Below are positions 7,000-14,533 of a stretch of DNA of 64,000 bases, in pieces. The position numbers and the translations under genes were made by a program. The stretch comes from an uncultured Myxococcales bacterium (GTDB lineage Bacteria; Myxococcota; Kuafuiibacteriia; Kuafuiibacteriales; Kuafuiibacteriaceae): the NCBI GenBank assembly GCA_964519665.1, contig CAZFIV010000022.1, positions 15,716 to 79,715 on the forward strand. The letters run 5' to 3'. Below the pieces are notes generated by a model. The model was not told the origin of the DNA. It was given only the letters and a program-made list of their open reading frames with translations, and made no database searches. Numbering within the stretch: position 1 is the stretch's first letter; every line of letters starts with the position of its first letter.

Positions 7000-9819
7000 C
7001 TACGGGCCGGGCGCTTCAGTCTCCTTTTCAACCTTAACGCTCACTCCCCCCAACGCCGACCTTCGGCGCCAAGCCTCCAGCAGAGGGTCCAAACGGCCGC
7101 GCTGGACATCCTTGTACGACGCGACCGAGGCACCGGTGCGCGGGTCTCGCGCCCCCTGCCCGTGTTCGAGATACACCCGAACGACGTCCAGTGACGGCGG
7201 CGCCGGCTCCTGCCAGCGGGCGCCCAAATTGTGAACGACGTGCGCCAGCAAACCCCGTTCGGGTCCGAAGAGCTCCAATCGACGGCCCCGCGCCTTCAGG
7301 GCAAGCCGGGCTCGGTATGCGACCTCGACACCGAAGGCCAAACTCTGTTGGCGAACCGCCGCGATACCGGACGGCTCGCGCGCCGGTCGGCTGCCCTGGA
7401 CGAGGACCTCGACCGTCACCCGCTCATCGTGTCCTTCCTTGGCTTTACGACGATGCAGGCCGTCTTCCATGCGCAGGTAGGCCTCGGCAGCCGGACCTTC
7501 GACGTCGAGGACGACCATCGTCGGGACATCGTCACGAACCGCGTACGCGGCCACCCGGGCGGTGAGGCCGACCGTCCGACACCACGCCAACTCGATCTCG
7601 ACGAGGTCGGCGAGCAGCCCGCCGTCCGTGCCCAGCGCCGACGCCGCAGCCAACGCGACCCAGATCTCGGTCGCCCCTTCGTCGGCTTCCCGCTGGGACC
7701 AGGCCGCGAGCGCCTGGGCCGCGCGTTCCGCCAGCCGCGCCAGGGTGTCGACCGACGCTTCGCCGAGATCGTCCCGTTCGAGCAGGTCGAGCAGCGGCCC
7801 GCTGATTCGCTCGAAGCTTCGGATCCGAACGTCGAGCCCTCGGTACCGGTCGACGACCGCGACCTCCTCGGCCGAGCCCCAGAACTGGGCGACGTTCATC
7901 CGTTCGATGAGATTTCGGGCCTCCTCCCTCGCTTCGTCGAGGGTTGCGAGCCGCTCCCGTGCTTCTTGCCCCAATCGGTCGAGTTCCTCCAGCAACGCGG
8001 CCCGGTCGAGCTGACGGGTGACCGCCTCGGTGCCGACCGGTATGCGGACGGGGACCCGCGGCTCGCGGAGCCGGGTCTTTGCGACCTCGGCCACCACTCG
8101 GGGCCCGCGAACCGCAACCCGAACGTGGCTGCCCTTCTTCGGTTGGTTCTTGACGATCGCCTCGGCGACCGCCGTCGCCACGGTGCGCTGAATAGTCCGC
8201 CTCAAAAAGCGGGCCCCGTAGTGCGGATCATAGCCATGAACGGTGAGCCAATCGAGGACCGCTTCGTCCACATCGAGCCCCAAGCCCCGCTGACGAAAGC
8301 CGGACCGCTCCTTGAGGGTCTGTAGCTCGCGGATCGCGATGGTTCGGATCACTTCTCGATTCAATGGGCGAAAGTGCACCAGCTCGTCGAACCGGTTGAG
8401 GAACTCGAAACGAAAGGCTCGATGGATGCGACGTTCGACCTCCGCTTCGAGTTGGTCGGGGGGCGGCGCGCTGATGAAGCCGAGCGCGTGCTCGCGATAC
8501 ACCTCGGCGCCGGCGTTCGAGGTGGCGATGATGATCAAGGACCGACACGGGACCGGCTCGGCGAGGCCGTTGACGAACCATCCTTCGTCGAAGAGCTGAA
8601 GAAAGCGGTCGTGTACCGCTCGGCTGGCCTTTTCGAACTCGTCGAGCAGCAGGACGGCGAAAGGATGGCCCGCCAACCGTTGGCTCAACAGCCCCCGCTT
8701 GGCCGCCACGCCGAACGCCGAAGGATCACCGAATAGGCGGGGAGCGTCGTTTTCGTCGGGGTAGTCGGACATGTTCAGTCGAACCATACGGTCGCGACTC
8801 GAAAACAAGAACTCGGCCAGCACCTGAGCCAGGTGGGTTTTGCCGACTCCGGTCGGCCCAGCGAACAGGAAGACCCCGAAGGGTCGACGGATGTCCGACA
8901 AGCCAGCTTTCACCATGCTGATCATGCGGACGACCGCGTCGACCGCTTCGTCTTGCCCCAGGACGCGATCCGAAAAGAAGCTGCGAACCTCCTTGAGGTC
9001 CAGGCTCTCTTCGGGATCGACGAGCACCCGAGGGATGCGCTGGTTTTCGCTGAACCGAGCGATGACGTGCCCCGCCTCGACCGTCGCGCCCGCCGGAAGA
9101 AGGGAGACCGTCTGCCGGATCAGGTCCAACGCGCTTCTCGGAAGCCGGTCCCGCGACAGGAAGCGGTGGGCCAAGTGCAGCCCCTGCTCGAGGCTCTCCG
9201 GCGAAATCGAAACCTGGTTGTGAGCCGCGTAGTCACCCGCCCACGCATCCAGGATCGTCACCGTTTGATCGAAGCTCGGCTCTTCTATTCGAACGATGAC
9301 GTAGTGCTCATTGAGTTCGGGCGTGTCCTCGAGCATCGCCTCGAGCTGATCCAACCGGCCCTCGGCCAGGATCGGACCCGGTAAGCGGTAACACATCGCT
9401 TCCACGACGGCTTCGAGATCGTGGGTGTAGGCCAAATGGAAGTCGCGGAAAAACGGAACTACGTCCGGCTGCTTTTCTAGAGCGTCCAACAGATGGTGGA
9501 ACGCCTCGCCGAGCTCCGACGACCGGCGCAGGGCCGTCACCCGCTGGCGAAACGAGAACTGCAACACTCGCCTCTGCGACAGCACGCTCCTCGTCCCGGC
9601 TCGACTCGACCTCAAGACCATCTCGTGCACGAGCGCGGTCTTTCCGACGCCTGACGGACCGGCCAGCATCGGGTGCTTCTTGCTGCGAACCAGCTCTTCG
9701 ACCTGTCGCAGAGTGTCGTCGACGCCGTAGGCATGGACGAGTTCGCCGCCTCGACCCGCGGCCGAAAGATCCCGCTCCGTCCATGCGTGCATAACCTCCG
9801 CCGCTTTGTTGTCGTCCAT
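7000..9819 (-). CDS. Atypical Hsp100/Clp-family AAA+ ATPase with two NBDs, no Clp N-domain, no M-domain, and a 385-aa C-terminal extension
   Basis: NBD2 is near-collinear with ClpB D2: [23 protein letters not shown]...AVLLLDEFEKA...IIIATSNAG...GYDPHYGARFLRR. NBD1 has Walker A LAGPSGVGKTAL and the ClpB-like sensor region YVIVRIEEPSFDQTVTIL. Its Walker B is degenerate (VVPFFRDFHL versus Clp[11 protein letters not shown]). Confidence 0.8.
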   Translation of the reverse strand: MDDNKAAEVMHAWTERDLSAAGRGGELVHAYGVDDTLRQVEELVRSKKHPMLAGPSGVGKTALVHEMVLRSSRAGTRSVLSQRRVLQFSFRQRVTALRRSSELGEAFHHLLDALEKQPDVVPFFRDFHLAYTHDLEAVVEAMCYRLPGPILAEGRLDQLEAMLEDTPELNEHYVIVRIEEPSFDQTVTILDAWAGDYAAHNQVSISPESLEQGLHLAHRFLSRDRLPRSALDLIRQTVSLLPAGATVEAGHVIARFSENQRIPRVLVDPEESLDLKEVRSFFSDRVLGQDEAVDAVVRMISMVKAGLSDIRRPFGVFLFAGPTGVGKTHLAQVLAEFLFSSRDRMVRLNMSDYPDENDAPRLFGDPSAFGVAAKRGLLSQRLAGHPFAVLLLDEFEKASRAVHDRFLQLFDEGWFVNGLAEPVPCRSLIIIATSNAGAEVYREHALGFISAPPPDQLEAEVERRIHRAFRFEFLNRFDELVHFRPLNREVIRTIAIRELQTLKERSGFRQRGLGLDVDEAVLDWLTVHGYDPHYGARFLRRTIQRTVATAVAEAIVKNQPKKGSHVRVAVRGPRVVAEVAKTRLREPRVPVRIPVGTEAVTRQLDRAALLEELDRLGQEARERLATLDEAREEARNLIERMNVAQFWGSAEEVAVVDRYRGLDVRIRSFERISGPLLDLLERDDLGEASVDTLARLAERAAQALAAWSQREADEGATEIWVALAAASALGTDGGLLADLVEIELAWCRTVGLTARVAAYAVRDDVPTMVVLDVEGPAAEAYLRMEDGLHRRKAKEGHDERVTVEVLVQGSRPAREPSGIAAVRQQSLAFGVEVAYRARLALKARGRRLELFGPERGLLAHVVHNLGARWQEPAPPSLDVVRVYLEHGQGARDPRTGASVASYKDVQRGRLDPLLEAWRRRSALGGVSVKVEKETEAPGP

Positions 9820-9845
9820 GACGCTCGGCGAGCGTACCCCGGAGG

Positions 9846-13289: not shown

Positions 13290-13303
13290 CCCGACTCTCC
13301 TCG

Positions 13304-14533
13304 TCAGAAGCCCCAGCGAAGCTCGCGCAATGCCTTCTTCGCGTCTTTGTAGTTGGGCTTCAGCTCTAAGGCCTTCTCTAGCGACCTCTTCGCGGCTTCG
13401 CCTTTACCTGCTTGTTGGTAGCACAAGCCGAGCACAAAGTGAGCCTCTGGCTCATTGGGCAAGAGCTGAACGGCTCGTTGGGCGTGAGAACGCGCCACCT
13501 TCGGATCTCGACCACCCTTCACCATGTTGTAAGCCAGCCGCATTCGCACGATCGCGTGGCGAGGCGCGATCTCCACGCCGGTTTCCAGAACCCTCACTGC
13601 TTCGGACCATCGAGTCATTTCTTCGTGCTGTCGGGCGCGACGCAGAAGGGGAGCGACGCGCGTTTCCGCCGTTTCCTCTTTCAGCTGGTTCACTATCTTC
13701 TCGTACTCGGGCCGGGGATCATACGCTTGAGCCAACTGAGCCAGGCCGAGGGCCTTGATGACGTCGCCCCCCGCGCGCTCTTTCTCGGCATCCGCTATCA
13801 AGCCCTTTGCCTTGCGAATGATCGCTTTCATCGGGTTTTTTTTCTTACGCCGCTCGATGGCCTCCTGCTCGCGTCTTTTTTCACGATCTTGGCGCCGCTG
13901 CGTATCGAGCATCTCGGAGATGTCTTCGTCAGCCACCATCAAGACGCTTTCTCGATCGTATCGTTGGCGCGTTTCGGGGTTCGACAGAACCTGATGAGCG
14001 GTTCGGATCCGGTCGTAGACCTGCTCGATCAGGAGCTTGAAAGAGCCCAGTTCGGAGTCGATTCGAAATCGGTCGGGGTGCCACTCTTTACTGCGAGCGA
14101 AGTAAGCTTTCTTGAGCGCCGCACCGTCCGCGAGGCGGCTCGCCCGGAGCAACTCGTAGTGGTTCCAGTGGTCTAAGTTAGCGTGAAACCAGATGATACG
14201 CTTGCGGTCGGCCTCGCTCAGATCGCCCGGCTCGGTGATCAGCGCGACGGGGAAAATGAAGTCACCGTAGTCGGGAGTCTCGAGGTCGATCGTTTCGGGT
14301 CGCGGCCCCTTGTCTTGGACGTTCGTCCAAATGACGACTCCGGCCCGTGTCAATCGGTCGAGTATACGATGCGTCTCCATTGCAGGTTGGCTGACCAAAT
14401 GGCAAAGGTCTTTCACCGCTGTTTGTCCGTCAATCCGGCATGCGACGAGACCTTCATCGTTTGAAAGGCCGGCGGTCGTGAGGTCGAGGCCCGGACGAAG
14501 CCGAGGGATGTCGGTAGACTCGATCGTCGTCAT
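13304..14533 (-). CDS. J-domain (DnaJ-like, HPD motif) co-chaperone with C-terminal TPR repeats
   Basis: The J-domain reads YELLRASRLADGAALKKAYFARSKEWHPDRF, with the HPD tripeptide. The C-terminus has TPR repeats (AEAHFVLGLCYQQAGKGEAAKRSLEKALELKPNYKDAKKAL). The N-terminal 75 aa resemble the C-terminal domain of the 9846..11345 protein. Confidence 0.85.
   Translation of the reverse strand: MTTIESTDIPRLRPGLDLTTAGLSNDEGLVACRIDGQTAVKDLCHLVSQPAMETHRILDRLTRAGVVIWTNVQDKGPRPETIDLETPDYGDFIFPVALITEPGDLSEADRKRIIWFHANLDHWNHYELLRASRLADGAALKKAYFARSKEWHPDRFRIDSELGSFKLLIEQVYDRIRTAHQVLSNPETRQRYDRESVLMVADEDISEMLDTQRRQDREKRREQEAIERRKKKNPMKAIIRKAKGLIADAEKERAGGDVIKALGLAQLAQAYDPRPEYEKIVNQLKEETAETRVAPLLRRARQHEEMTRWSEAVRVLETGVEIAPRHAIVRMRLAYNMVKGGRDPKVARSHAQRAVQLLPNEPEAHFVLGLCYQQAGKGEAAKRSLEKALELKPNYKDAKKALRELRWGF

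Follow-up and report, generated by a model that had tools for sequence, protein, structure and literature searches.

In the window (the whole stretch analysed, 64,000 nucleotides of a contig from an uncultured Myxococcales bacterium), four co-directional genes lie together on the minus strand, and the last of them encodes a 939-amino-acid (aa) protein in which a Clp/Hsp100-class ATPase with two AAA+ modules is fused to a catalytically dead homolog of a class-I release factor (RF). The three genes ahead of it encode a J-domain/TPR protein, an Hsp70 and a proline-rich protein, here called X. We hold with high confidence that the domain architecture of the fusion protein is as described below, and we regard it as likely that the locus consists of two juxtaposed modules and not of an obligate four-gene system. 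On balance we lean towards an explanation with two separable units, a Myxococcota Hsp70 trio (unit A) and a fusion gene inserted between X and rarA/clpB (unit B), each working in the manner proposed here. The locus is of interest mainly for the fusion protein, and not for the chaperone triad proposed by an earlier, sequence-only reading of this DNA. The fusion protein and its parts, with the evidence for each, are as follows (ORF, open reading frame; AF2, AlphaFold2).

7000..9819, minus strand: AAA+/pseudo-release-factor fusion, 939 aa (ORF, profiles, alignments)
9010..9819, minus strand: D1 AAA+ module, aa 1-270 (column counts over 118 members; ClpA/ClpB alignment)
8080..9009, minus strand: D2 AAA+ module and D2-small domain, aa 271-580 (AAA_2, 1.3e-33; ClpB_D2-small, 1.9e-18)
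8476..8484, minus strand: L446-G447-F448, putative ClpP-docking tripeptide (translation; family counts; ClpA register)
7045..8034, minus strand: pseudo-release-factor module, aa 596-925, RF2-like domains 1-4 (profile, AF2/Foldseek, RF2 alignment)

Domain architecture of the fusion protein

Column conservation was counted over 118 members of the fusion family, and the ATPase core was aligned by MAFFT with E. coli ClpA and the canonical ClpB encoded in the window. Pfam recognises AAA_2, ClpB_D2-small and AAA_lid_9 on the fusion protein. Clp_N (PF02861) was not found in it, the protein beginning at the D1 large domain, and the alignment places the M-domain, an insertion of approximately 120 aa, in ClpB only; the earlier description of a 939-aa double-AAA+ protein devoid of both Clp N-domain and M-domain is borne out by both analyses. 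The NCBIfam ClpA model gives a single alignment (aa 6-569 with ClpA 164-733), at a score well below its cut-off (275 versus 993 bits), and the ClpB equivalog TIGR03346 reaches 304 bits against a cut-off of 1232.

The two AAA+ modules have fared differently. The D1 Walker A motif is kept (G-x-x-G-[VI]-G-K-[TS]), and the Walker B motif reads h-h-R-D followed by L, I or F and never by Glu across the family, D126 being invariant; in the window it is FFRDFH (codons 9433-9453), without the catalytic Glu. The arginine-finger segment of D1 is deleted and a pore-loop motif is not recognisable. From these features the D1 ring probably binds ATP and does not hydrolyse it. In D2, Walker A, Walker B (DE in 118/118), sensor 1 (N435), the Arg finger (LNR) and sensor 2 (GAR) are all invariant in the family. 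The residue at the site of the GYVG pore-loop Tyr is Phe in the window protein (aa 369; 8713-8715, minus strand).

Eleven residues past sensor 1 stands a tripeptide with L (59 members), I (35) or F (20) in first place, followed by G (118/118) and F (115/118). The window version, LGF, is in exact register with the IGL of E. coli ClpA, and no comparable tripeptide occurs at that site in the ClpB of the window or of Thermus thermophilus. Tripeptides of the [LIV]-G-[FL] type are the ClpP-docking element of ClpA, ClpC, ClpE and ClpX and are absent from ClpB. The register with ClpA and the role of the tripeptide elsewhere together lead us to predict docking to ClpP, a prediction that we rate as evenly poised.

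Judged on its sequence, the ATPase core is ClpA-like and not ClpB-like. With E. coli ClpA it shares two AAA+ modules, the want of an M-domain, the D2-small domain and the tripeptide 11 residues after the sensor-1 Asn. It differs from ClpA in having no Clp_N and therefore no ClpS-type adaptor site, in a D1 stripped of Walker B Glu, Arg-finger segment and pore loop, in a D2 whose pore-loop Tyr is not conserved, and in the C-terminal RF2-like module of 330 aa. ClpB/Hsp104 belongs to the same Clp/Hsp100 class, and the fusion D2 is closest in sequence to a ClpB D2 (T. thermophilus ClpB, 264 bits); the fusion protein departs from it in lacking the M-domain, which is the Hsp70 docking site, and the N-domain, in its dead D1 and in its ClpP-type loop. 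The fusion protein is not to be seen as a ClpB-like disaggregase without its M-domain, but as a ClpA-like core with an [LIF]-G-F loop and a dead RF domain. A defence-system reading was rejected, since PADLOC returned only generic AAA_2-type matches (DolB, PDC-M37B) to part of D2.

The C-terminal extension, which had been suggested as an element coupling the ATPase to Hsp70, is a four-domain homolog of class-I release factors, RF2-like and catalytically dead. A 22-sequence profile of aa 596-939 searched against PDB gave RF2 as the best match (E=2.5e-14) in two stretches, covering domains 1-2 and domain 4, and its other matches were RF1 or RF2 chains only, save for a chance match to PPK2 (E=0.48). 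The AF2 model of the region (pLDDT 89.3) was compared with PDB by Foldseek, and all of the top 50 matches were class-I release factors (RF1, RF2 or mtRF1), the best being E. coli RF2 (1gqe; E=4e-12, probability 1.0). The model is nearest to the compact, off-ribosome form of RF2, with a TM-score of 0.48 to 1gqe versus 0.36-0.39 for the open, ribosome-bound forms. A match of the window C-terminus alone to a viral p7 protein (phmmer versus PDB, E=0.54) was dismissed as chance.

The module is collinear with E. coli RF2 from end to end, from the domain-1 'FW' to the C-terminal 'G-x-LD-x-x-LE', and keeps the core motifs FW, G-x-HR (as G-V-HR), RDPRTG (as [KR]D-x-RTG) and G-x-LD-x-x-LE (as G-x-LD-x-FIEA). 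The motifs by which release factors act are gone. GGQ is not conserved in the 118 family sequences, where three incidental GGQ tripeptides fall at non-homologous sites, and SPF occurs in one of the 118 and is likewise not conserved. Set against E. coli RF2, the module has other residues in place of the alpha5 GGTE segment and a deletion where the SPF/RRHTSF loop would be, so that all three elements of stop-codon recognition that were checked (the SPF/PxT loop, the alpha5 tip and the conserved His) are lost. The AF2 model has a five-residue turn where the GGQ loop would be, and conserved basic positions (R/K823 and R825) lie at the former GGQ region. The fold is kept while the decoding and catalytic motifs are lost, and we therefore term the module a pseudo-release factor.

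RF2 (PrfB) itself is thus matched in its four-domain fold, collinear sequence and common core motifs, the module differing in the absence of GGQ, the SPF loop/RRHTSF and the alpha5 GGTE segment and in being the C-terminal part of an ATPase and not a free factor. Other diverged RF paralogs are PrfH (RF-H), which works with RtcB2, and ArfB/ICT1; both PrfH and ArfB retain GGQ. Arabidopsis PrfB3, which derives from RF2, is said to be devoid of GGQ and SPF and to serve as an RNA-stability factor. All of these reuse the RF fold away from canonical termination, PrfB3 offering a motif-less precedent, and they differ from the present module in that none is known to be fused to an AAA+ motor.

Distribution of the family and possible roles

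The fusion is the normal architecture of a large family. Full-length homologs of the fusion protein number more than 100, at 44-76% identity over 97-100% of its length; PF03462 (PCRF) is precomputed on most of them, and one is named 'ClpA/protein subunit release factor A'. At thresholds of E<=1e-30 and E<=1e-10, a search of 1.84 billion representatives with a profile hidden Markov model of the pseudo-RF returned approximately 100 and 252 clusters respectively. The long matches are mostly of 905-980 aa and carry the RF part at approximately 600-930 (outliers 886, 1120 and 1186 aa), from which we conclude that the fused state is the rule. Genomes were also scanned, one per species, with an 8-sequence RF sub-alignment, which gave 29 loci, all in metagenome-assembled genomes (MAGs), from Acidobacteriota, Planctomycetota (Phycisphaerae, Planctomycetales), Myxococcota (Polyangia, Haliangium) and Binatia. 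Full or near-full fusion genes are held by 23 of these 29 loci, the other six being partial or divergent matches. Clustering of neighbouring ORFs across the 29 loci yielded only shadow ORFs of the fusion gene and no conserved partner, clpP and translation genes included.

Two divergent forms are found among the scanned loci. A 658-aa protein (L027:8432-10408, plus strand) combines a single AAA-like domain with the same pseudo-RF; its Walker A has decayed to GPEGCGQS, in which Gln takes the place of Lys, and it is probably an ATPase-dead short form of the family. A 229-aa ORF (L024:9707-10396, plus strand) consists of the C-terminal pseudo-RF part only (…ARTYGEGGTGARDPRTGAVV…LLAAWRS), has no recognisable AAA+ gene upstream and is possibly a remnant, or else a fragment standing alone.

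The literature searched contained no account of a Clp-RF fusion, although earlier work elsewhere is possible, and a survey of release-factor evolution makes no mention of Clp or DnaK (PMC6514570). The AAA+/pseudo-RF fusion is apparently a widespread and undescribed protein and a new domain architecture within Clp/Hsp100. A Clp/Hsp100 motor permanently fused to a dead release factor would represent an undescribed targeting principle for such a motor.

In its mode of action the fusion protein would come closest to a ClpA/ClpC-type unfoldase that carries its own adaptor. Under the explanation that we favour, its hexamer would be a ClpP-coupled unfoldase with D2 as the motor, and would not be a ClpB-type, Hsp70-activated disaggregase; the pseudo-RF domains would be built-in targeting modules, directed either to stalled or vacant ribosomes, at their A site or factor-binding region, or to RF-binding partners. 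Targeting to ribosomes is the most plausible of these because the RF fold binds ribosomes, and it is the weakest step of the explanation because the tips are lost, the model is of the compact off-ribosome kind and the module sits at the ClpP-proximal end; it is a tentative proposal, about which we remain doubtful. In its fullest form the fusion protein would be a ribosome-associated quality-control machine, in which the dead RF2 docks at the A site or factor site of stalled or vacant ribosomes, no stop codon being required, and the ring extracts or unfolds an obstructing protein (a nascent chain, a trapped factor or a ribosomal protein) and passes it to ClpP, with coupling in the window sub-clade to Hsp70 triage of the released chains, but this we think unlikely.

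If true, however, such a machine would be a functional counterpart, within one polypeptide, of the eukaryotic pair Cdc48-Vms1. Cdc48/p97 serves eukaryotic ribosome quality control with Vms1/ANKZF1 (PMC6514570). The functional analogy lies in a double-ring AAA+ unfoldase paired with a release-factor-like protein. Vms1, however, is a catalytically active protein built on the unrelated archaeo-eukaryotic eRF1 fold and forms a polypeptide of its own, and Cdc48 stands outside the Clp class. The fusion of motor and dead release factor would also hint at an energy-dependent quality-control step for ribosomes or translation factors in Myxococcota, Acidobacteriota and Planctomycetota, phyla with many uncultured members, the ribosome-rescue repertoires of which are little known. 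The motifs of the fusion protein are clear enough for trap (D2 E394Q) and docking (LGF) mutants.

Several observations weigh against the role proposed for the fusion protein. The window protein alone matches PCRF (PF03462) below threshold, at 13.9 bits against a cut-off of 24 (E=0.049), and RF homology therefore rests on the family profile together with the model. The decoding tip and the peptidyl-transferase-centre tip are both lost, so that binding to the ribosome is not assured, and the RF module hangs from D2-small, which we take to place it close to the side of the ring that faces ClpP, well away from the D1 entry pore and awkwardly for pulling a ribosome-bound substrate. The aromatic residue of the D2 pore loop is not conserved (Y in 44, H in 32, F in six and another residue in 36 of the 118 sequences, about 30% being non-aromatic), which is unusual for a threading motor, and members of the family come nearly all from MAGs.

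The alternative that survives best is a ClpP partner or stand-alone unfoldase in which the pseudo-RF has been exapted for a non-ribosomal role; this could be oligomerisation, auto-regulation or service as an adaptor for a protein that binds release factors (the PrmC methyltransferase, RF3 or an ArfA-like factor, for example). Loss of every ribosome-acting motif (GGQ, SPF and the alpha5 GGTE), the closer likeness of the model to compact RF2 (0.48 versus 0.36-0.39) and the failure to find a translation gene as conserved neighbour all suit this alternative. Yet four RF domains and their core motifs are strongly conserved over four phyla, more than a simple scaffold seems to need, and basic residues persist at R/K823 and R825 in the former GGQ region; we consider it rather unlikely.

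Gene order and the four-gene cluster

The remaining members of the cluster and the genes on its downstream side are listed here.

13304..14533, minus strand: J-domain/TPR co-chaperone, 409 aa (ORF and Pfam)
14333..14467, minus strand: small winged-helix-like domain of the J protein, aa 23-67 (BLASTP versus X C-terminus)
13955..14164, minus strand: J domain with HPD (...KEWHPDRF...), aa 124-193 (Pfam and translation)
11436..13289, minus strand: DnaK-class Hsp70, 617 aa (ORF and Pfam/NCBIfam)
9846..11345, minus strand: protein X, proline-rich, 499 aa (ORF and alignment of five orthologs)
5601..6929, plus strand: rarA/mgsA, convergent with the cluster (MgsA_C, 1.2e-63)
2869..5445/5508, minus strand: canonical clpB (matches to Clp_N, AAA, AAA_lid_9, AAA_2 and D2-small)

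The ORF coordinates agree with the sequence-only reading in a co-directional set of four genes with spacers of 14 nt (J to Hsp70), 90 nt (Hsp70 to X) and 26 nt (X to the fusion gene), and in two further assemblies of this organism genes called independently yield four products of equal length to these. A block in the order dprA-STK-trmFO-xerC-hslV-hslU-argD-J/TPR-Hsp70-X was found in all homologous loci examined (L030, L034, L035, L036, L041 and L042), argD standing for an argD-like aminotransferase. In the conserved Myxococcota order (window 1-21800 and the six loci) the gene of a LysM protein precedes dprA. Across Myxococcota MAGs, X is often followed by (rarA)-clpB-bamA-AAT, making for a proteostasis-rich neighbourhood.

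The fusion gene lies between X and rarA in the window, L030 and L042, co-directional with X at spacers of 26, 39 and 5 nt respectively. In L041, the closest relative by its J protein (61% identity), X is followed by rarA(-)-clpB-bamA and the fusion gene is absent at the site. In L035, clpB-bamA comes directly after X, which may be the original position of clpB relative to the trio; in L034 and L036 unrelated genes follow X and the fusion gene is absent. L030, L041 and L042 come from the same metagenome, and the gene is present in L030 and L042 and absent in L041; close relatives thus differ, at one and the same site, in having or lacking it.

The conserved Myxococcota unit is the trio J/TPR-Hsp70-X, not the quartet. 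Adjacency of all four genes is restricted to the sub-clade of the window (L030, L042) and is wanting in L041, in L034-L036, in L031, whose fusion homolog (53% identical) is likewise unlinked to Hsp70/J, and in the 23 loci with full or near-full fusion genes, in none of which an Hsp70 or J gene was found within 7-10 kb on either side. The search for conservation of the four-gene arrangement proposed in the sequence-only reading therefore recovers the trio across Myxococcota and the quartet within that sub-clade. Of the non-standard Hsp70/J-protein module first described, the J/TPR-Hsp70-X part is syntenic in every Myxococcota locus examined and the AAA+ gene is not a constant member. In the favoured explanation, unit B would be a lineage-specific insertion of a gene from a widespread family nearly always encoded away from Hsp70.

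It could instead be that the four genes form one Hsp70/J/adaptor/AAA+ machine in this lineage, with clients handed off through X or the C-terminal domain. All four genes point the same way and are set close together (26 nt from X to the fusion gene in the window, 39 in L030, 5 in L042), the arrangement recurs in those related contigs and, going by contigs of equal length, for the homolog pairs P0002/P0131 and P0004/P0175, and the cluster lies amid the proteostasis genes hslVU and clpB. The fusion gene is tightly spaced behind X throughout the sub-clade and is therefore probably co-transcribed with it, which speaks against complete separation of the two units, and a local functional link of the fusion gene to the trio is conceivable there. 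Against a single machine, L041 has the trio, rarA and clpB and no AAA+ gene at the site, and L034-L036 also lack it; the AAA+ family is never next to Hsp70/J in 23 loci from four phyla, nor in L031; the taxon-named J/TPR orthologs are all from Myxococcota or unclassified 'Deltaproteobacteria', while the fusion family is much broader; and the AAA+ protein has no M-domain and carries a ClpP-type loop. We judge the single machine to be quite improbable, and the self-contained Hsp70-Hsp40-Hsp100 triad is weakly supported now that its AAA+ member proves absent from L041 and L034-L036 and unlinked in the 23 loci and L031. A ClpA/ClpC-type protease partner not linked to Hsp70, which the sequence-only reading had named as the outcome that would overturn it, is what inference from sequence now indicates, with binding to ClpP predicted.

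Least probable of all, we believe, is a ClpP-independent ribosome remodeller (splitting or reactivating hibernating or stalled ribosomes, or evicting trapped factors) that puts the G-F loop to another use: an RF fold fused to a motor, a non-canonical D2 pore loop in which His is frequent (27%) and suggests an atypical substrate, and the absence of clpP from the conserved neighbours would suit it, but the [LIF]-G-F tripeptide is near-invariant and in the register of ClpA IGL, and the window ClpB is without it.

The Hsp70 trio and its neighbourhood

The trio that remains as unit A would be a specialised DnaK/J-protein system, with a targeting domain common to X and the J protein. It would run an ordinary Hsp70 cycle, the J protein stimulating ATP hydrolysis, and X and the J protein may bring in a common client or partner through their shared winged-helix domain and TPRs, in a setting with hslV-hslU-argD upstream and clpB-bamA downstream. 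A J/TPR-DnaK-X trio beside hslVU and clpB makes a defined, specialised Hsp70 module and bears on the specialisation of DnaK paralogs.

The Hsp70 matches PF00012 over aa 6-583 (E=5e-206; profile positions 1-578/599) and is complete, with nucleotide-binding domain (NBD), VLLLDVTP linker, substrate-binding domain (SBD) and lid. Its start codon is GTG, preceded by CGAGGAGAGTCGGG, which holds a GAGGAG ribosome-binding site. Completeness, start codon and binding site all stand as first described; the absence of EEVD, to which the sequence-only reading had drawn attention, is true and uninformative, as E. coli DnaK also lacks EEVD. Identity to E. coli DnaK is 54% over NBD and SBD-beta, and the linker is conserved between the two; the protein scores above the cut-off of NCBIfam PRK00290 (749 versus 648 bits) and below that of TIGR02350 (721 versus 822.55 bits). 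Orthologs of the trio Hsp70 are 75-89% identical, where the J proteins are only 38-61% identical.

E. coli DnaK ends in a long tail, acidic and disordered, of which the trio Hsp70s are devoid. Near the C-terminus of all of the orthologs stands a conserved PLERTLRMLRGVAQKM (11436-11500, minus strand), with the stop codon 1-21 residues later and, in four of seven, no more than three residues after it; we regard it as a candidate docking peptide for the adjacent TPR proteins. E. coli HscC-DjlC/DjlB is a specialised bacterial Hsp70/J-protein pair, to which the present trio is alike in setting a DnaK-class Hsp70 beside a dedicated type-III J protein. The Hsp70 cluster of the window contains no grpE. 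Myxobacteria typically have two DnaKs of the PRK00290 class, MxDnaK1 and MxDnaK2, and in M. xanthus no J protein adjoins either dnaK (PMC11019930). The trio Hsp70 belongs to the same class, and, unlike those of M. xanthus, is flanked by a J/TPR gene and X.

The J protein is of type III. PF00226 matches aa 124-193 at 45.7 bits (cut-off 27.8), and TPR_2/TPR_19 matches at aa 295-402 form a C-terminal TPR array; these matches, and HPD in the translation, bear out the J-domain protein with TPR repeats of the sequence-only reading. The architecture of type I/II DnaJ was not found, TIGR02349 covering the J domain only (37.7 versus 377 bits), and outside the J domain the protein consists of a winged-helix-like domain and TPRs. 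Approximately 63 full-length orthologs were found, the taxon-named ones having the restricted distribution given above.

In protein X, an alignment of five orthologs shows a conserved N-terminal TPR-like unit, a variable proline-rich linker and a conserved C-terminal domain of approximately 125 aa. The single TPR-like unit had been noted before, and corresponds to a weak TPR_2 match below cut-off (E=5e-4). The C-terminal domain (aa 375-499) is modelled by AF2 as a TPR-like hairpin followed by a winged helix (pLDDT 91), and its best Foldseek matches are winged helices at non-significant E-values of 0.1-0.4; a word-indexed homolog search with these 125 aa returned nine proteins only. The two partner proteins of the Hsp70 have the winged-helix domain in common: the N-terminal domain of the J protein is homologous to the C-terminal winged helix of X (9849-10040, minus strand; 31% identity over 45 aa, BLASTP E=4e-6). 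Pfam is blind to this shared domain, giving only an insignificant PqqD match (E=0.15), and an identification as an RRE/PqqD-like peptide-binding domain was dropped, because the fold search supports a generic winged helix only, at E-values that are not significant. Short conserved motifs are found in the linker of X (window 10400-10700, minus strand), SPWD[DE]GPSRTSV and DAVP-x-PTPLP-x-x-DR-x-x-FF, and may be partner-binding sites, for example for the Hsp70 SBD or TPRs.

Canonical ClpB is encoded nearby, as the sequence-only reading had stated (2869..5445), and carries both Clp_N and the M-domain, the latter evident as an insertion in the alignment (2869-5445). Within the 64-kb window no tRNA or tmRNA gene was found and no Rfam family reached its gathering threshold; a scan for promoters and terminators found nothing promoter-like, and its 13 terminator-like sites compare with 8±3 expected. 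The ORF at 15817-18111 (minus strand, 764 aa) matches HslU in its C-terminal 460 aa or so only, and its 5' end is judged to be over-extended because hslU in homologous loci encodes 457-464 aa and is preceded by hslV.

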